From an uncultured virus (IMG/VR IMGVR_UViG_3300036770_007242) (lineage: Duplodnaviria > Heunggongvirae > Uroviricota > Caudoviricetes): a stretch of 64,000 bases of DNA. Below the pieces are notes generated by a model that was not told the DNA's origin, ran no database searches, and saw nothing but the letters and a program-made list of their open reading frames with translations. How positions within the stretch are numbered: the stretch's first letter is position 1; each line of letters opens with the position of its first letter. Of this stretch, positions 9,086-52,477 are shown in pieces. The DNA lies in the IMG/VR virus record IMGVR_UViG_3300036770_007242; one strand, 5' to 3'. The position numbers were made by a program, and so were the translations under genes.

Positions 9086-12000
9086 ATGGCTAAAAAAGAA
9101 AAGAGTTTTTATCAGCGACTGACGAGATTATTTCGCAGCGGTCCAGCAATACGTAGAAAGATTCGTGGTCAGGACTATAAAAACTTCTACGACAATCAAG
9201 TAGTTCAAAACAACCTTGGCTATTATGGTGCTGCTGGATTTAAGCGTGAGGCATCTCCATTTTCTGTTATGGGTGCATACGGTATTCTTGATCGTATGTC
9301 TCGTTATGCTGAGTTTGCAGAAATGGAAAACTGCTTGCATGGTGATACAAAGATTGCTGTGCCGGGAGGATATAAAACTCTTAAGCAGCTCACAGAAGAA
9401 TATGGTCTTGAAAAAGAATTTATTGTTTATTCTTATGACCACAATAAAAAAGCGATTGTTCCAGCAGTAGCTCGTCAAGCAAGACATACAACAACAACAC
9501 ATGCTTATCGTGTGGTTTTTGATAACGGTAAAGAAATCGTTGGAACAGAAGACCATCGTTTAATGAAACGTGATGGTACATATTGCGAGATTCGTGATCT
9601 TAAACCCGGTGATGCAATGATGCCTTTTTATCGCCGTTCATTGGTTGGAAAAGAAACAGGTCCAGAACTTCAAGATAACTGTTATCAGTTAATCTATACT
9701 ATGAACAAAGAAGATAGTCCATCTAGATGGATTGCTGAACATAGATTACTGGGCAAGTTTGTAGCTGGTAGATCGCTAGAGTTAAACGAGGTTGTTCATC
9801 ACAAAAACTTTAAAGCCCATGATAATCGTCTAGAAAACTTGGAAATAATGACCGAAACCGATCATCAAGCTTTACACGCAAAAACATTGAACGGCAAAAA
9901 ATGGGACAAAGAAACTAACCATGATTGGATTGCAAAGTTCAAAGAACGTCATTCCGCATGGATGAAAGAAAATAATCCAGCAGAAAGAAAAGATATCAAG
10001 TTTGAAAGAATACTTCAATGGTGTGATGAAAATAGTTTTAACCTTTATGCAGTTGCAAGAGCTTTCGATACAGATATAAACACTATTAAGAGAAAGTTGA
10101 AGACAAAAGGTTTTGAGAACTTTGTGTCTTTTGCAAAAGCTTATTGTTCTGGTTGGAAACCATATAACGGAGAAAATCAAGGGGCAAACAACAATCGTTA
10201 TCTACACGACTTAACTTTTGAAAAAATCTGCAATGCATATTCAAAAGGTTTAAGCCAACGAAATCTTGCCAAACGTTTAAACGTTTCAGTTATTCCAATA
10301 AATGCAAGACTTAAAGAAAATGGGTTTAATAACTGGAAAGAGTTTGCTTCAACCTATGAAAATCTAAAAGTTGTAAGTGTCGAATATTATGGCGTTACAG
10401 ACTTGTATGATATCACTGTTGACGGCTTTAAAAACTTTGCAACCGATTCTTTAATCGCCCATAACACAGCAGACATTGCGACAGCATTAAACGTTTATGC
10501 CGACGAATCTTGTGCCACAGACGAAAATGGTAGAACCTTTCACATTTACAGCGATGTTCCACAAATCCAACGTGCATTAGAAGAACTGTTTTATGACGTA
10601 ATGAATATCGAGTTTAATGCCAGACGTATGGTTCGTAACCTTGTTAAAAACGGTGACTACTTCATGTATGTTGAAGTTGTACCAGACTACGGTGTTATCA
10701 ACGTAGAACCTTTACCAGTAAACGAAGTAGAACGTGAAGAAGGTTTTGATAAGCATGACCCATATGCTGTTAGATTCCGTCTTATCACAAGAGGCGGCAA
10801 GTATCTAGAAAACTGGCAAATGCTACATTTCCGTATTCTTGGCAACGACTTGTTTCTTCCATATGGTACAAGCTTTCTAGAGTCTGCAAGAAGACCTTGG
10901 AGACAGCTAACCATGATGGAAGACAGCATGTTGGTTTACCGTCTTGTACGCTCTCCAGAACGCAGAGTGTTTTATGTAGACGTATCAGCAGTGCATCCAA
11001 ACGATATTCCAAGCTATATGGAAGCTGTTAAAGAGTCTATGCGTGGAGCAAGTGTTATCGAGCAACAAACAGGTCGTCAAGACTTTAGATATAACCCTCT
11101 TGCTATTGATGAAGATTATTTCTTGCCAACCAGACCAAACAATCAAACCAAGATTGAATCCTTGGCTGGAGGACAAAATGCTACAGCTATCGAAGACGTA
11201 GAATATATTCACAAGAAGCTTATTGCTGCTTTGATGGTACCAAAAGCTTATCTTACCTATGATGAAGCTATTTCTTCTAAAGCAACATTAGCTCAAGAAG
11301 ATATTAGGTTTTCTAGAACAGTTGGTCAGTTGCAAAAGATTTTGATTGCAGAACTAAACAAGCTTGCAATGATTCATCTTTATGCGCTTGGATTTTCGGG
11401 TGATGATTTATTGAACTTTGATTTAAAGTTTTCTAATCCATCAACTGTTGCGGTGCAACAAAAACTAGCTCTTATTTCTAGCAAGCTTGAGATTGCAGCC
11501 AAAGCTTTAGAGTTATCAAAAGAAACTGGCTTGCTAAGTTTTAACTACATTCAAACCGAGATTCTTAGCTTGCGCCCAGAACAAATCAATATAATCAAAC
11601 AAGAAGCTCGGCAAGACCAAGTTACAATGGCAGAGCTTAAAAAGATTGCAGAGAATCCTCCGTTTGATAAAAGCATTGACAGTAATATTGACATCTTTGA
11701 CAAAAGCAACTATGAAGTTCCCACTTCACCATACAGCCCAGACAAAAAAGAAGTTCGTAAGCTTGAACAACAAAATCAAGAACAAGAGCAAGAGTATCAA
11801 GCTCGTCGAGCAAAAGAGCGTGAAGAAAAATCTGGGAACAACAGTGGTGCTCCTATACGCTTTAGTCCAACACCCAACCTAGATAAGAGTTTTAGAAAGT
11901 CTAGAAGAAGCAAAGCGTTTACTGGAGACAGGGCACTTGTTATGCCAGACTTCAAAAAAATGTTGGATATCACAAATAATCGTTATGCAAAAGATCCATT

Positions 12001-12241
12001 CGACACAGAATCAATACGCAAGTTTGTGTTAGAAGAATCCGAGATGGAAAAAAGTCTTTTCAACACGAACGACCGTTTGCCATTTGGTTTGACAAAAGAA
12101 ATGCAAACATCGCTTAGAAAGCTTAACGAAGCATTATATCCCAAGCGTGTTGGTTCCGATGTAGAAGTTGTTAACAATACCAAAGAAGACGAAGTTAACG
12201 ACGAATTATTCCTTATAGAAAAAGAGTTGAAATCAGAATAG
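9086..12241 (+). CDS. T4 gp20-like portal protein with intein
   Basis: RYAEFAEME..ALNVYADE, HFR, PYGTSFLE, MEDSMLVYRLVRSPERRVFYVDV, EDYFLP, LAQEDIRF. Confidence 0.95.
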   Translation: MAKKEKSFYQRLTRLFRSGPAIRRKIRGQDYKNFYDNQVVQNNLGYYGAAGFKREASPFSVMGAYGILDRMSRYAEFAEMENCLHGDTKIAVPGGYKTLKQLTEEYGLEKEFIVYSYDHNKKAIVPAVARQARHTTTTHAYRVVFDNGKEIVGTEDHRLMKRDGTYCEIRDLKPGDAMMPFYRRSLVGKETGPELQDNCYQLIYTMNKEDSPSRWIAEHRLLGKFVAGRSLELNEVVHHKNFKAHDNRLENLEIMTETDHQALHAKTLNGKKWDKETNHDWIAKFKERHSAWMKENNPAERKDIKFERILQWCDENSFNLYAVARAFDTDINTIKRKLKTKGFENFVSFAKAYCSGWKPYNGENQGANNNRYLHDLTFEKICNAYSKGLSQRNLAKRLNVSVIPINARLKENGFNNWKEFASTYENLKVVSVEYYGVTDLYDITVDGFKNFATDSLIAHNTADIATALNVYADESCATDENGRTFHIYSDVPQIQRALEELFYDVMNIEFNARRMVRNLVKNGDYFMYVEVVPDYGVINVEPLPVNEVEREEGFDKHDPYAVRFRLITRGGKYLENWQMLHFRILGNDLFLPYGTSFLESARRPWRQLTMMEDSMLVYRLVRSPERRVFYVDVSAVHPNDIPSYMEAVKESMRGASVIEQQTGRQDFRYNPLAIDEDYFLPTRPNNQTKIESLAGGQNATAIEDVEYIHKKLIAALMVPKAYLTYDEAISSKATLAQEDIRFSRTVGQLQKILIAELNKLAMIHLYALGFSGDDLLNFDLKFSNPSTVAVQQKLALISSKLEIAAKALELSKETGLLSFNYIQTEILSLRPEQINIIKQEARQDQVTMAELKKIAENPPFDKSIDSNIDIFDKSNYEVPTSPYSPDKKEVRKLEQQNQEQEQEYQARRAKEREEKSGNNSGAPIRFSPTPNLDKSFRKSRRSKAFTGDRALVMPDFKKMLDITNNRYAKDPFDTESIRKFVLEESEMEKSLFNTNDRLPFGLTKEMQTSLRKLNEALYPKRVGSDVEVVNNTKEDEVNDELFLIEKELKSE
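9332..10465 (+). mobile_element. 378-aa intein with HNH endonuclease domain, inside portal
   Basis: N-terminal CLHGDT, block B GTEDHRL, HNH core EHRL..VVHHKN...DNRLENL, block F/G YDITV...NF...AHN followed by +1 Thr. Confidence 0.93.
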
Positions 12242-17530: not shown

Positions 17531-19486
17531 ATGTCACGTACACTAACCCTATCACAACTCGCTGAAGGTATTCAACGTACCGCAGCAACTGCTGGCGATG
17601 AACGCATGGTCGGCAAATGGTCACGCACAGGTCTTCTAGAAGGTCTTTCAAATTCTGGCAAGCAAAAGATGGCTCGCCTTCTTGAAAACCAAGCTGTAGA
17701 AGTTCTCAAGGGTGGCTCTTCAATGCTCAACGAAAGCCTTTCACTCTCAACCGGTGGTGCATCACTTGCATCCTCTGGTCAAGTGGCAGGTTTCACCAAC
17801 GTAGCATTCCCAATCGTACGCCGTGTATTCGCTGGCCTCGTAGCCAACGAAATCGTCAGCGTACAACCAATGAGCCTTCCATCAGGTCTACTCTTCTATC
17901 TAGATTACACCTACGGTTCATACGTCGGTGGTGACGCTGCTACAGCCGCTAACCAATTTTCTACATCAGCAGATCCTGGTGCAGCAACATATGCTCGTGG
18001 TCAATCAGTATACACCAACCCATCCGGTTCAGTAATCCGCACAAGCGGTTCACTCGCCGCTGGTGGTCAATACAACCTCATCGGTTCTGGCTACTCAAAG
18101 GTACACGTACAAGGCAAACTCGCAACAGGCGTAGTTGCTCTTGGTGCATGGACCGGTGGAACAACATGGCTCACAGGTTCATCAGTATCAGCTTCAGCAG
18201 GTTTCGTTGGTTACAACGCACGTTTTGTAGATTATGATCCACTTCTTTCAACAGACGTTGAAAACAGTGTGCTCGATTATACCTTCTTAGTTGTGTCAGC
18301 CTCACAACTAACAACAGCAATCAATGGTGCAGACCTTACCTCGGTTGAACAAATTGCAGTAACAGGTCTTGGTTCATCAACTTCAACCTTTACAGCACCT
18401 CCACAAACTTATCAACAAGGCGAAGCAGTTCTCAACTTCCGTCGCTTTACAAAGCGTGGTAACTGGACTGATGCTGGAACTAGCTCAACCTTTACACCAG
18501 ATCCATTCAACGGTTCACACCTTCTCTTTGCAATGGGCCTTGCAAACGCACAAAGCGTTGCAGCCGTATCTCTCGGTAGCGTAACCACACAAGTAACAGC
18601 TTCAGCACCAATCGCTGACGCTCTCTCAGTTAATTCAGATGGTTCAGCCCTTACCATCCCAAGCTTTGAATCAAACTTCGCTGTTGATGCATCACCACGC
18701 ATCCCAGACGTTGACATCAAAATCGATTCAGTAGCTGTTACAGCAACAACCCGTAAGCTACGTGCACGCTGGTCACCAGAAATGGCCCAAGACCTCACAG
18801 CATTCTACTCAATCGACGTTGAAGCAGAACTCACAAATATCCTTTCTGAAATGATCACATTGGATATCGACCGTGAAATTCTCAACGACCTACTTACACA
18901 AGCTCAAGCAGCTAACTACTTCTGGAGCCGTGCCCCAGGTCGCTTCGTCAACAAGTACACTGGTACCGAAGTTGCTCGTACAAACACTGTATACCCAGGT
19001 CCACAATTCACCGGCACAGTCCGTGAATGGTACGAAACACTTATCGAAACCATCACCGACGCAGCCAACGTCATCCACAAGAAGACTCTTCGTGGTTCAG
19101 GTAACTTCATCGTGTGCTCACCAGAAGTGGGTACCATTCTTGAAGCAACTGTTGCTTACCGTGCCAACTACAAGATCGACGGCGATGGCCAAGTTCGTGA
19201 CAACATGAGCATTGGTGCAGAAGCAGTAGGTACAGTAAACGGTCGCTACAGCGTGTTTGTTGACCCATACTTCCCAGTAAACAAGATCCTTGTTGGTCTT
19301 AAGGGTTCAACCTTCCTTGAAAGCGGTTATATCTACGCTCCATACGTACCACTCATCCTCACCCCCGTAATCTACGGTCAAGAGGACTTTACACCACGTA
19401 AGGGCATCATGACACGTTACGGCAAGAAGATGGTACGTGCAGACTTCTACGCCACCGTGACCTGCCTCGATATGTCAATCATTTGA
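17531..19486 (+). CDS. T4 gp23-like major capsid protein
   Basis: KWSRTGLLEGL, LLENQ, FPIVRRVF, VSVQPMSLPSGLLFY, TRKLRARWSPE, YAPYVP, FTPRKGIMTRYG. Confidence 0.97.
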   Translation: MSRTLTLSQLAEGIQRTAATAGDERMVGKWSRTGLLEGLSNSGKQKMARLLENQAVEVLKGGSSMLNESLSLSTGGASLASSGQVAGFTNVAFPIVRRVFAGLVANEIVSVQPMSLPSGLLFYLDYTYGSYVGGDAATAANQFSTSADPGAATYARGQSVYTNPSGSVIRTSGSLAAGGQYNLIGSGYSKVHVQGKLATGVVALGAWTGGTTWLTGSSVSASAGFVGYNARFVDYDPLLSTDVENSVLDYTFLVVSASQLTTAINGADLTSVEQIAVTGLGSSTSTFTAPPQTYQQGEAVLNFRRFTKRGNWTDAGTSSTFTPDPFNGSHLLFAMGLANAQSVAAVSLGSVTTQVTASAPIADALSVNSDGSALTIPSFESNFAVDASPRIPDVDIKIDSVAVTATTRKLRARWSPEMAQDLTAFYSIDVEAELTNILSEMITLDIDREILNDLLTQAQAANYFWSRAPGRFVNKYTGTEVARTNTVYPGPQFTGTVREWYETLIETITDAANVIHKKTLRGSGNFIVCSPEVGTILEATVAYRANYKIDGDGQVRDNMSIGAEAVGTVNGRYSVFVDPYFPVNKILVGLKGSTFLESGYIYAPYVPLILTPVIYGQEDFTPRKGIMTRYGKKMVRADFYATVTCLDMSII

Positions 19487-19514
19487 AAAAGTCCTGAAAA
19501 ACTAGGATAACAAG

Positions 19515-19551
19515 GAAAGAGCGGGTCAAAAGCCCGCTCTTTCTGCATTTT
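19515..19551 (+). terminator. intrinsic terminator after MCP
   Basis: GAAAGAGCGGG-TCAAAAG-CCCGCTCTTTC followed by TGCATTTT. Confidence 0.8.
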
Positions 19552-19624
19552 AGAGATTAGGCAAAACAAACAATCCATATCCAAAACAGTCTTTGTGTGA
19601 TAATATATATCTAAGAGGTGATAT

Positions 19625-20548
19625 ATGGAACTAATCTTTCATGATAAAGGCAATGAAGGTGGTATATACAAGATTCTAAATCTACAAAATGGTAGGATTT
19701 ATATCGGGTCTACATATCGTTTTAAGGATAGAGCAAGGGGACATAAAACTGAACTAGAAGCTGGAAGGCACCTAAATAAGTTTTTGCAAAATGATTATAA
19801 CAAGTGTGGATCTGAGGTTTTCTTATTTGAAGTTATTGAGACTGTGATGGGTGATAGGAAAACCAGAGTCGAGCGAGAGCAGTTTCATATCGATCAATGG
19901 TATGATAATCAAAAGAACTGCTACAACTTAGTTCCATATGCAATGGATAGTCGTGGTGGTTCACGCAATAAGAAACAAATCGATCCATTAACGGATGGAC
20001 GATGTAAACCATTTAATGAGGAGCGTCGTGCAAAACACACAGCCAAGTTAAAAGAAGTGTGGCAAACTCCCGAACTAAAAGAACAATCCAGACAAAATGC
20101 ATATAAGCAATGGCAAGAACAATCTCAGAACAACATAACTGTAACCAACAAAGAGACTGGTGAAAAGGTTGTTATAAGCGGTTCTGTTCGACAGTTTTGT
20201 TTGGATAGAGGATTAAGCTATAAAGCTTTTCATCAGCTAGTAAAAGGCAAACTAAAGAGTTCTGGAGGGTGGTTTGTAGGAGAACAAGAACCAGAATACA
20301 CTAGTAAAAAAGGACAAGTTAGAAAACCTTTAAGTAAAGAGCATAAAGAAAAGATAAGCGGTGGCAAATACGTAGGATTAAAACTTGTTAACCATGAAGG
20401 TTTAGAGATTGTATTAACTTCAAATGTCAAGCAACAATGTAAAGACTTAGGCTTGCCATATTCAACGTTGATCAAGGTTTTAAACGGAAAGTGTAAATCT
20501 GTGTTTGGATATGCTCTAGCAATAGTGACCTCTCTTGATATGGGGTAA
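19625..20548 (+). mobile_element. free-standing GIY-YIG homing endonuclease gene
   Basis: GIYKILN...YIGS, R, E, YN catalytic pattern, NUMOD-like repeats. Last 9 codons resemble the MCP C-terminus. Confidence 0.9.
20519..20548 (+). pseudogene. relic copy of the MCP 3' end
   Basis: AIVTSLDMG versus MCP ATVTCLDMS. GTGACCTCTCTTGATATG versus GTGACCTGCCTCGATATG (15/18). Confidence 0.75.
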
Positions 20549-20576
20549 ATACCCTGTGCAAGTGACTAGATAAAAG

Positions 20577-20610
20577 GAAGGGCAGCTCAAAAGGCTGCCC
20601 TTCTGCTTTT
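20577..20610 (+). terminator. intrinsic terminator homologous to the MCP terminator
   Basis: GAAGGGCAGC-TCAAAAG-GCTGCCCTTC followed by TGCTTTT. Confidence 0.8.
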
Positions 20611-27431: not shown

Positions 27432-27521
27432 ATGGCAAGATTATTCATAGGATTGAGAGAAGTCCAGTTTATTAATGATCTTGCAACTTCCAACCTTTGT
27501 GCGATTTGTTTTTGCCGCTGA
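27432..27521 (+). pseudogene. orphaned 5' stub of the gp14-like gene
   Basis: GGAG RBS, then MARLFIGLREVQFINDLA (identical to the first 18 aa of 28525), then an out-of-context tail and TGA. Confidence 0.92.
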
Positions 27522-28359
27522 TTACATTTCTTAGATGAGTGGGATGTAGGGCATGTAGTTTGCAAAAGGCACTGAGACATACAATTTGCCTATATATTTC
27601 GCCAGTATTAGAAACTAGAGGTCTATCAGATAAGTCGTATATTTTGGCATTGTGGTTATCCATTCCGCTACACTTACCTTTTCTATTTTGTTTCATTTTA
27701 TTAATTGACTCTTGTTTGTGTTTCATACCATAAGTTGGGCTAAGTTCTCCTGCTTTACCAAATAAAGGATGTTTGTCTCCTGCCAATAATCCTTTATGAG
27801 ACTCAGAGAGTTTTTTTCTAGTTTCTTCCGAGATAGTATGTCCAGTTTGAATATTCCGAAGTTTTTCTTTAAGGGCTTCTCCTTTTTCGGTTTGGTAAAA
27901 CCTCTTCTTTGATTCACTGATATTAATCTTGTCTTCTTTAGTGAAACTATAGTTCCTACCACCGGTTATGACGTTGCAAACTTTGCTGCCATATATGAGT
28001 TTAAATTCATTTATATGAAACTGCTCTCGCTCGCACAACAACTTACCAATTTCAGCTTCGTTTGTGGCCACTGACGTATCAACAACTTCTACAATAGAAA
28101 ATCTCAAAAAATCGACGTTACCAGTTTCTAGGTAATGTTTCTGCACCGAACGTTTGAGTTTTATGTTTGTCCCTGATTTTCTTTGTTTTTGTATTGGTTT
28201 CAAAAGATCATACTTGTAGTTTAACCATCTCTCTCTTATTGTTCTTCTTGTCTGTCCAATGTAAATCTTGCCGGAAATCGTATTTTCGATTTTATAGATC
28301 ACATTCTTGGTTCTTGAATGTTGTGCGCCCCCATATCTGTAATCAAACTGCCATTCCAT
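27472..28359 (-). mobile_element. free-standing GIY-YIG homing endonuclease gene
   Basis: VIYKIEN...IYIGQT, REQFHI, NUMOD3 HTISEETRKKLSES, terminal KSHKGW. Confidence 0.9.
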
Positions 28360-37383: not shown

Positions 37384-37418
37384 CATGTGGTATACTTATT
37401 AAAGAGGTATACCACATG
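37384..37418 (+). promoter_or_regulatory. hairpin occluding the HNH start codon, with late-promoter motif inside
   Basis: CATGTGGTATAC / GTATACCACATG perfect 12-bp inverted repeat. TACTTA at 37393-37398. Confidence 0.75.
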
Positions 37419-38273
37419 TTTTCTTGCCCAATTTGCCCGCAACATTACTCTGAACTAATCTCTCTTTCGGTACACTACCGAAAACAACACAAAAAAACTT
37501 CTCAAGATTTATACGTTTCTTTATTCTGCAATAACGTCATTCCACTTTGTAAGTGTGGATGTGGAACGCAGGTAAAATTTCTGGATATTACGCAGGGTTT
37601 TCGTGAATACAAACTCGGACATGCTTCTCGTGTAGCGAATAATTTTCAAACCGAAAAATCTAGATCGAACTCTAAAAGTGCTCGACGGAAAATGCTAGAA
37701 GATGGTAGTTGGAAACCATTTGTGACAAAAGAAACAGGAGAGCACTGGAGTAAAGGTTTAACTAAAGAAACGGATGAGCGTATTCGAAAGATGGCTGACA
37801 CTGTTTCTCTACCTGAAGAGAGTGCTCGTCGGTCAGAGAGAATGAGAAGGAACAGACTCAATGGAGTTGTACGAACATTGCACAAAGAGGAACATTCACA
37901 GTGGAAAGGTGGAGTAACAAGTCTTCTAAGTTATTGTCATTCGAACAAAAAACTTTTTACTGAATGGAAATATCCCAAACTATTAAAATCAAACTTTTCA
38001 TGCGAAAAATGTGGAGCTTCTAGAGATGCCAACCCCAGACCATTATTAGAAGTACATCACGATAAACAGCGAATGTCTGAGATCGTAAGGTATATTGCAC
38101 AAACATTCGGCTGGAAGGATCATTATGCAACAACTCCAACCGATTCAGAAAGTATAGAGATGAAAGAAAAAATCTCTGATGCTGTTGCTGTATATCATAT
38201 CGAAAACAATATTAGCGGAATCGTTCTTTGTCAGGAGTGTCATAAAGCCATACACAACAAACATAATCTTTAA
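37416..38273 (+). mobile_element. free-standing HNH homing endonuclease gene with Zn-finger N-terminus
   Basis: CPIC..H...H, CKCGCG, WKGG, CEKCG..LEVHH..CQECH...H. Confidence 0.85.
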
Positions 38274-51309: not shown

Positions 51310-51378
51310 ATGAACAAGTTTACGAATGATACCAAAGGACTTTCAACAGTTTATTCCTCTAGCGTCCAACCTTTGTAA
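51310..51378 (+). pseudogene. orphaned 5' stub of Flp pilin gene
   Basis: TACTTA + GGAGG + MNKFTNDTKGLSTV, then an out-of-context tail and TAA. Confidence 0.85.
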
Positions 51379-52247
51379 GTTTTTATTATTCCAGACAAAA
51401 GTCTATAGAAACTACTTCTTTCTAAATTGTTTTCTATCATAAATCTTACAAGATTTATTCCTTCTACTTCTATTCGTTTGTGGTCGGAAACGAAAACAAA
51501 TACTTTGTCACCATAACGCTTTCTTGCTTTTGTTTCGCTTATTTTTTGTTTCTGGCCATCAGACATAGTTTTACCAAAGTTTGGATTTTTTTCACCTAAC
51601 CTGGAGAAACTCATCTTTTCTTTCGTAGTAGCGTTTGCTTTTTTCCCAATCCTAGATTGACGTAATTTTTCCTTAGTTTCTTCCGATATATTTTTTTTGG
51701 CTTCAACAAGTTTTTGTATATGTTCTGGTGTTTTAGGTTTCCTTAGTTTTTCTTTTGCTTCTTCTGACATTGGCACACCAATATGGGCGGCACGTATCTT
51801 TTCTTTTGTTTCTTCTGTTCTGGGCACACCTACTCTTGCAGCAATTGAGGCTTTTGTTGCCTTGGACATATCTTTGCCTTTACGCTGTTTGCTCCATAAA
51901 GCTTTTGTTTCATCAGATGGTTTAAAACCAAGGGTATTACCAGCCTTCTCGCAAATATTATAGCATTGTTTTTTGCCATCAAAAAACTTCTCTAGATAAT
52001 ATTGCTCTCTAACCAATAACTGTTTTTTATCAACCATCTCAATAATTTCATAAGTTAACGGTTCCTGCCCATATTCTTTTTTGCAAGAGTTATAATCATT
52101 TTGCAAATATTGATTTGGATGACGATTATGGAACAAATCAGATTGATGAGCTGCCCATCGCTTCATAAAGTCAATGGTACTTCCTATGTATATACGACCA
52201 TTGAACTTATTTGTTATCTTATAGATGCCAGATTTTTTCATGTTCAT
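51351..52247 (-). mobile_element. free-standing GIY-YIG homing endonuclease gene
   Basis: SGIYKITN...IYIGS, REQYY, YN, several NUMOD3 EETKEK repeats, terminal YKGW. Confidence 0.92.
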
Positions 52248-52312
52248 GTGTTATATATAGTTGTTCTTTGCAGTTGTTGCATAGAAATACACTAAAAAAA
52301 AGGAGTTCTAAG

Positions 52313-52477
52313 ATGAAAAAACTTGCAAAAGACACTAAAGGACTTTCAACAATTGAATATGTGATTATTCTCATTTTGATTGCTGTTGTTGGCATTACGG
52401 CATGGAGAACGTTTGGAAACACTGTTGTAACCAAAATTAACTCTGGTAACAGCCAAGTAAGTGGTTTGGGTCCATGA
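52313..52477 (+). CDS. flp: Flp/Tad (type IVb/c) prepilin
   Basis: AGGAG RBS, 54 aa: MKKLAKDTKG^LSTIEYVIILILIAVVGITAWRTFG. G-1, E+5, Y+6 and hydrophobic helix. Confidence 0.88.
   Translation: MKKLAKDTKGLSTIEYVIILILIAVVGITAWRTFGNTVVTKINSGNSQVSGLGP

Follow-up and report, generated by a model that had tools for sequence, protein, structure and literature searches.

The endonuclease I-TevI of phage T4 has an operator that is identical to its homing site at 15 of 20 positions, overlaps a late promoter, and is bound but cut about 100-fold less; putative operators are given for I-TevII as well as I-TevIII (from the part of PMC2988022 available to us). The same part describes T4 segD, antisense between genes 23 and 24 and with an unknown target, as well as free-standing T4 endonucleases whose cut sites lie hundreds to thousands of bases away. 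In fungi, nuclease insertions duplicate the 3' end of a gene, as in Allomyces atp6, Ophiostoma rps3, and Phlebia atp6 and cox2 (from the accessible part of PMC4019555). Shuffling of nuclease domains and CapR are treated in the accessible part of PMC10448857, where the word "operator" does not occur. Our literature search found no description of operators of free-standing nucleases, subscription papers being mostly outside its reach. Here we analyse a stretch of 64,000 nucleotides (hereafter the window) from an uncultured virus of the Caudoviricetes (IMG/VR record IMGVR_UViG_3300036770_007242), which is part of a large uncultured T4-like phage. Behind its major capsid gene stands a free-standing GIY-YIG endonuclease gene whose 3' end repeats the end of the capsid gene, each copy being followed by a similar hairpin. 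An earlier note, made from the DNA letters alone, took this to mean that the nuclease cassette had imported a capsid end plus terminator from a diverged relative. We confirm that the repeat of capsid end and hairpin is real, but its history was misread in part. Probably, the cassette at 19494-20513 is an insert with its own terminator-like hairpin, whereas the "capsid end" further downstream stems from the leader of a sister cassette, as a 37-base piece of its own that likely acts as an operator there.

For comparison, we gathered 247 loci (L plus a number below) by capsid, nuclease and DNA-pattern scans. The loci with a capsid end gave 119 alleles that differ from one another. A GIY-YIG gene stands directly 3' of the capsid gene in 34 of them and not in 74; the remaining 11 were too short and were dropped. 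Among the 34, 31 carry the nuclease family of the window and three an unrelated one. Carriers are enriched, with 86 loci coming from nuclease searches, and counts must not be read as population frequencies. The 25 best nuclease matches (L107-L131) all lie directly behind a capsid gene. The main features of the locus are these:

17531-19486 (+): gene of a T4 gp23-like major capsid protein (Pfam Gp23, E 1.5e-78; PHROG major head protein)
19515-19543 (+): terminator-like hairpin T1, which appears to have come in with the cassette
19625-20548 (+): gene of a free-standing GIY-YIG endonuclease of 307 amino acids, with an I-TevI-like catalytic domain and two predicted helix-turn-helix-type repeats, its SLDMG coming from the 37-base insert
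20576-20604 (+): terminator-like hairpin T2, apparently the resident capsid terminator, identical in the empty alleles L190 and L088/L090
20641-20988 (+): small HNH gene (Pfam HNH) in the shared right flank, near-identical in L190

The gp23-like gene is thus followed by a spacer of 138 bases, the GIY-YIG gene and the small HNH gene. The capsid protein has no close relative among GenBank phages (best identity 49%). As the earlier note had observed, it ends in ATVTCLDMSII, and the GIY-YIG reading frame runs in frame into AIVTSLDMG. At the DNA level, 20525-20542 is identical to capsid positions 19457-19474 at 15 of 18 bases, and the long pattern they have in common occurs at only those two sites of the 78-kb contig. 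When the two 120-base regions are aligned locally, the score is 73.5, against 54.5 for the best unrelated one among 2595 background windows (mean 26.2, standard deviation 5.2).

The description of T1 and T2 as perfect hairpins with a common TCAAAAG loop and three paired differences in the inner seven base pairs also holds. On their own, the compensated pairs are no extra evidence: between two perfect hairpins, every difference is necessarily compensated. The contig has five hairpins with at least eight base pairs and at least five GC pairs, T1 and T2 among them. A terminator scanner called T2 on both strands and T1 on the minus strand only, because its U-tract is weak. When ten such hairpins are aligned, the stems vary and the pairing is kept, with two-sided changes at three of nine predicted pairs in an imperfect alignment. 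Judging from these comparisons, T1 and T2 are two members of one family of capsid terminators. The earlier note had named two patterns that would speak against the import, namely the same terminator family at many unrelated loci and homologous nucleases ending in VTSLDM regardless of context. Neither was found: the hairpin family is tied to the capsid locus, and 27 of 28 complete nuclease genes lack the ending; it is on other grounds, given below, that the import of a capsid end fails. We likewise rejected a genome-wide repeat, since only two copies of this hairpin family occur in the 78 kb. It is plausible that T1, placed between capsid and nuclease genes, shields the nuclease from the capsid transcript. 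Among close alleles (L095 versus L097/L104, L083 versus L084, L115 versus L117) hairpin loops occur in both orientations, A-rich and T-rich, as if the loop inverted between the stem arms.

The nuclease-free allele L190 differs from the window at 6 of 225 capsid bases and is near-identical over 800 bases of the right flank. Their alignment leaves two gaps, one at 19494-20513 and one of 37 bases within 20524-20563. Cassettes of this family appear to come in two layouts: in type A a mimic of the capsid end would lie between terminator and start codon (reversed in the window), in type B directly after the capsid stop (element X). The pieces around the two gaps are the following:

19487-19495 (+): left half of a resident small hairpin split by the cassette, identical to the bases after the stop in the empty L190
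19494-20513 (+): the apparently inserted type-A cassette (1020 bases, its edge sliding by 2 bases) with T1, leader and nuclease gene body, a gap relative to L190
20514-20525 (+): right half of the resident small hairpin, found before T2 in L190, L192 and L201, its last 8 bases common to the start of element X
20519-20566 (+): element X, a leader motif of type B, made of a forward capsid mimic (20525-20542) and a hairpin (20534-20562), with one difference to L088/L090 over 20518-20566
20527-20563 (+): the 37-base insert proper within element X, skipped in sequencing runs X4, X5, X6, X12 and X16

L190 holds only the downstream hairpin; therefore T2 is resident, and T1, leader and nuclease body were inserted as one piece. 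Of the import proposed earlier, the terminator is supported and the capsid end is not. T1 is absent from the empty L190, and a close copy of it is the sole capsid hairpin in the nuclease-free L095, L097 and L104. The last 45 capsid bases of the window, in turn, differ at 8 positions from the T1-type alleles L095/L097 and at 10 from L083, but at only 2-3 from L094, L088 and L190. As read from these alleles, the terminator duplication is nothing out of the ordinary: the cassette carried the capsid terminator of a relative. The alternative that L190 is a deletion scar of the window allele is disfavoured, its hairpin half also preceding T2 in L192 and L201.

What, then, is element X? The order of the pieces looks exactly as if the cassette had brought a new capsid end and terminator and pushed the old ones downstream, as in fungal atp6 and rps3. 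Such a displacement would agree with an imported T1 and a resident T2, and the last one to three capsid codons are convertible in other alleles. Yet we consider it very unlikely. In L088/L090 an intact capsid stop is followed by X and then T2 with no nuclease between; X also stands after an intact stop in L196, where the nuclease is down to its last codons. X lies upstream of the nuclease, 14-17 bases past the capsid stop, in nine type-B alleles (L085, L086, L115, L117, L119, L123, L189, L192 and L241), the order being capsid-X-hairpin-nuclease in L085, L189 and L192, the last with a nuclease cut to 50 residues. The same cassette lacks X in other studies, alleles lacking X are seen in L190 and in the six runs described below, and among the 28 complete genes of the family only that of the window has the motif at its 3' end. 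Finally, the capsid end of the window is unlike that of the T1 lineage. The downstream AIVTSLDMG hence does not look like a former native end. Elsewhere in the collection, the first 20 bases after the capsid stop of L031, L041 and L042 hold short duplicates of the last 4-5 capsid codons (11 of 14 matches), which are closer to the displacement model.

We compared six runs (X4, X5, X6, X12, X13 and X16) from six studies other than the probable source of the window (X1), noting that run contigs drop rare variants. Among the matches listed, the nuclease allele of the window occurs without the 37 bases in X4, X5, X6, X12 and X16, with a joint across 20526-20564, and X13 has a loose end matching this X-less allele. 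X5, X6 and X12 show one difference near the joint, possibly at base 20526. Three RNA runs (X18-X20), which consist of contigs only, share no more than 5-7% of the sequence words. Alleles running from capsid to X are found beside the X-less nuclease allele in at least two runs, X4 and X16. The X-bearing nuclease form, among the matches listed, was seen in X1 and in L081/L082, possibly of the same source as the window. One might thus suspect an assembly chimera of two co-occurring alleles: both parents do co-occur in samples, and the X form is confined to the probable source study plus two IMG/VR contigs of possibly shared source. However, one X1 contig spans the whole stretch without differences, the separate assemblies L081 and L082 encode the same 307-residue protein ending in X-derived residues, and the left overlap of 8 bases is far below assembly word lengths; a chimera is therefore extremely improbable. 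Without the 37-base insert the nuclease frame would stop three residues earlier.

An operator should lie upstream of its gene, and the copy at 20525-20542 lies at the 3' end of the nuclease gene. It is at best an orphan copy, and X as found here is most likely a neutral remnant. By analogy with the sister cassettes, the "capsid end" would be a stranded leader motif, in those cassettes likely an autorepression operator by function. Two further ideas about X were dropped: stop-codon read-through extending the capsid, rejected as a general function (after the stop, L085 and L088 have X in the capsid frame, L086 and L115 do not), and a selenocysteine-insertion hairpin, considered by eye only.

The operator interpretation draws on the leaders of the whole family, where the following parts of the window matter:

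19457-19474 (+): capsid codons V-T-C-L-D-M, the putative nuclease binding site and model for the mimics
19573-19591 (-): capsid-end mimic in reverse orientation (codons T-V-L-D-M), some 45 bases ahead of the start of the nuclease gene, likely the cassette's own operator, with the same reversed site in L083 and L201
19607-19614: weaker second core in the leader

In 27 of the 31 family alleles, the stretch from the capsid stop to the start of the nuclease gene contains an 8-base core matching the capsid L-D-M codons, whereas 300 shuffles gave a mean of 2.1 and a maximum of 9. Of the 74 nuclease-free spacers, 11 have the core, and three of these 11 have the appearance of former carriers; none of the three unrelated GIY-YIG leaders has it. 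It occurs in both orientations among leaders. Outside the searched core, the next base is the capsid's G in 24 of 35 mimics (background frequency 0.23), the flanks of type-B copies match the capsid at 7.25 of 12 positions (background 3.55), and an unsupervised 6-mer count ranks GATATG second of 1148. A single mimic among the 35 carries both Cs typical of nuclease-free capsid ends. Of the 27 leaders, 11 retain the motif although the capsid end of the same phage has drifted away from it; this agrees better with selection for binding than with a fresh duplication. The longest match to the own capsid end, tried as a group separator, did not separate carriers from non-carriers.

Alternatively, the leader motif might be a promoter element or transcription-factor site (TTGACA-like) that resembles the capsid codons by chance, X being an orphan promoter piece. 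Nucleases behind a terminator do need their own promoter, 17 of 35 mimics include TTGA(C/T)A in the core, and a -10-like word, CTATAC/ACTATA, is co-enriched in leaders. Yet 18 of the 35 cores break TTGA, the motif stands in both orientations before the same gene family, and the type-B copies resemble the capsid outside the core, as seen above. Moreover, the motif is found upstream of 10 of 70 other genes of the phage's own genome, for which reason it was rejected as a general promoter element. We regard this explanation as unlikely. We hold about as unlikely the idea that X and its kin are old capsid-end duplications kept as RNA hairpins that stabilise or process the 3' end of the capsid mRNA, with no role in protein binding. 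X does fold, with the pairing preserved in its variants, a small hairpin lies between stop and terminator in most alleles, the leaders of L003 and L113 hold a longer capsid-end look-alike, and there are the short end duplicates of L031, L041 and L042. But L085 and L086 pair the same, constant motif with different partners, type-A mimics lie after the terminator, often reversed and outside the capsid mRNA, and the motif tracks nuclease presence.

Where does the nuclease cut? Near-identical pairs of alleles place the edge of the nuclease cassette within or just after the last one to three capsid codons, and the relevant part of the window is

19478-19486 (+): last two capsid codons and stop, the putative cut and conversion zone of the family (from allele pairs and from C at -7 and -4)

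Over 300 capsid bases, L120 (type A) and L123 (type B) have 99% identity to the empty L046. In the last 45 bases, position -4 is the sole difference from it, silent and in the last codon, and divergence begins immediately behind the stop. For L115/L117 the identity to the empty L224 is 100% over 300 bases, with differences at -10, -7 and -4. These pairs point to the last codons, adjoining the insertion, as the cut or conversion zone. C at both -7 and -4 is found in 1 of 31 carriers versus 32 of 72 non-carriers (1 of 23 versus 11 of 21 in the close clade), and the rare codon ATA comes last in 15 of 31 carriers, compared with 3 of 172 upstream Ile codons. Mapped on a quick capsid tree of 101 rows, nuclease presence requires 19 changes, of which strong branches force 9; shuffling gives a mean of 25.4. 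The locus thus bears the mark of homing, i.e. a patchy distribution and a converted flank, full and empty pairs differing in the last 4-10 capsid bases. The same spot behind the capsid is taken by a zinc finger plus TnsA-like nuclease in L035, L040, L042, L053 and L062, and by NUMOD3 plus a Mom-like domain in L049, L052, L054 and L058; several of the zinc finger/TnsA-like alleles also end the capsid in ATA or ATT. The capsid stop is therefore a hot spot for more than one nuclease family.

The nuclease itself has no match over 80% of its length among GenBank phage proteins. Its GIY-YIG domain scores above the Pfam cut-off, matches 1MK0/1LN0 (E 5e-15) and reaches a Foldseek template-modelling (TM) score of 0.88 to 1LN0. 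R36, E85 and N101 are invariant in six of six sequences; R36 and E85 align with positions mutated in 1LN0 and 1MK0, and N101 with an Asn. In I-TevI numbering, the Arg and the Asn are R27 and N90. A structure model built with 6 sequences (mean predicted local distance difference test score 71, predicted TM score 0.37) has a flexible linker followed by two small repeats, predicted as beta-beta-alpha-alpha-beta units. Binding of V-T-x-L-D-M with a cut about 10 bases downstream would fit this build. The gene is intergenic and outside introns: an Rfam scan of four loci gave three weak hits far below gathering scores, with no RNA family and no intron. In L085 (2754-3665) the nuclease has an N-terminal domain like that of L086, and its C-terminal two thirds are almost identical to those of the window; it is a mosaic of the domain-shuffling kind described in the accessible part of PMC10448857.

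These observations suggest the following history. A free-standing GIY-YIG family located directly behind the gp23-like gene comes and goes along the capsid tree, with its cassette edge in or just after the last codons. Its C-terminal repeats would likely bind the conserved V-T-x-L-D-M codons while the catalytic domain cuts near the stop, and carriers would escape cutting mostly by silent changes in the last codons. The copy of the binding core in the leader, a recurrent motif in these alleles, would then be bound without being cut, letting the protein damp its own transcription as I-TevI does. Some type-B cassettes, to judge from the alleles at hand, lost their nuclease and left X before T2; a type-A allele would subsequently have gained X by a recombination whose left side ran through the 8 shared bases and whose right side ran through the identical T2. 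This uptake of X would have extended the reading frame to AIVTSLDMG.

Several points weigh against this history. The order of recombination events is not provable from end products. The cut-site pattern has exceptions, since L236 keeps both Cs with a nuclease and L241/L246 show no difference there, and the nearest empty allele of the window, L190, is already without both Cs. The matches of the C-terminal repeats are weak (PF22083 22.4 bits with a cut-off of 27; Foldseek E 0.08 to I-HmuI and 4.7 to I-TevI). The motif pattern was drawn after viewing these leaders, and related alleles inflate all Fisher and binomial p-values. Four of the 31 family leaders lack the core, and the match of type-A flanks to the capsid is weak (4.15, p 0.04). 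Carriers do not exceed other spacers in their best 14-base match to the own capsid end (10.3 versus 10.05), by which measure the mimic is short in most alleles. Lastly, no sigma-70 promoter was called at 19560-19620.

One might go further and speculate that types A and B are two interchangeable designs of self-control built on the same capsid site. In type B, with about 14 bases between hairpin and start codon, the nuclease would be made by read-through from the capsid gene and throttle itself by a roadblock right behind the capsid stop, there being no promoter to occlude, while operators left behind once the nuclease is lost, such as X in the window, would act as non-cleavable decoys that shape re-invasion. 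This extension is doubtful. If true, a nuclease arms race, its outcome settled by single silent bases, would be recorded in layers at the capsid stop.

Other nucleases and duplications were seen along the way. Behind the capsid gene of L005 (5732-6382) stand small genes, two in tandem, that are paralogues of the C-terminal part of the capsid protein (48% over 130 residues); judged by eye, L004, L238 and L246 have similar gene starts. In the window, a second GIY-YIG/NUMOD3 gene (51351-52247, minus strand) lies reversed between a gene start at 51310-51350 (+) and a gene at 52313-52477 (+). The latter encodes a Flp-pilin-like protein of 54 residues, MKKLAKDTKGLSTIEY (Pfam Flp_Fap, E 4e-5, below the cut-off), and the truncated start, MNKFTNDTKGLSTV, has its own ribosome site and has 17 of 18 bases in common with the full gene. 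This arrangement (51310-52477) may be a true insertion with a displaced gene end or another target mimic. The portal protein (9086-12241) contains an intein carrying an HNH domain, a further GIY-YIG/NUMOD3 gene lies at 27472-28359 (-), and a zinc-finger, HNH-looking open reading frame stands right behind the tail-tube gene (37416-38273, plus strand). In the leaders of the last two genes, nothing was found that convincingly mimics a neighbouring gene.

For T4 intron nucleases, target-mimicking operators are documented, and the present family offers a candidate case among free-standing ones. Its natural alleles, nearly identical and occurring in full, empty and scarred form, allow the binding site (V-T-x-L-D-M), the cut zone (the last codons) and a protective silent base to be predicted without bench work, so that targeting, self-immunity and autorepression can be tested directly for a capsid-linked nuclease. 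They also carry a warning: where a gene end seems duplicated next to a nuclease, the copy may be an operator instead of a displaced end. The one discussed here is probably a rare leftover.

One of the closest parallels is I-TevI. Both nucleases have homologous catalytic domains and a partial copy of a host-gene site upstream of the nuclease, with 15 of 20 identical bases there and 15 of 18 for X. In our family the core is common to leader and capsid end, relative to a presumed homing site, and lies upstream of the nuclease in 27 of 31 alleles, with no promoter called at the copy of the window. Unlike I-TevI, the nuclease of the window is free-standing and has no intron (no group I hit), and its likely target is the capsid 3' end; moreover, the putative mimics come in two layouts and both orientations, with one copy stranded at a nuclease 3' end. 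T4 segD, in the available part of its description, is likewise a free-standing GIY-YIG gene beside the major capsid gene and bounded by terminators, but it is antisense, and the cut sites given there for free-standing enzymes are distant, whereas the present family is co-oriented with its edge in the last capsid codons. The fungal atp6 and rps3 insertions, as far as the accessible text describes them, have the same layout of gene end, nuclease and look-alike gene end. There, however, the downstream piece is the displaced native end, whereas here it stands beside an intact end and comes from the leader of another cassette.

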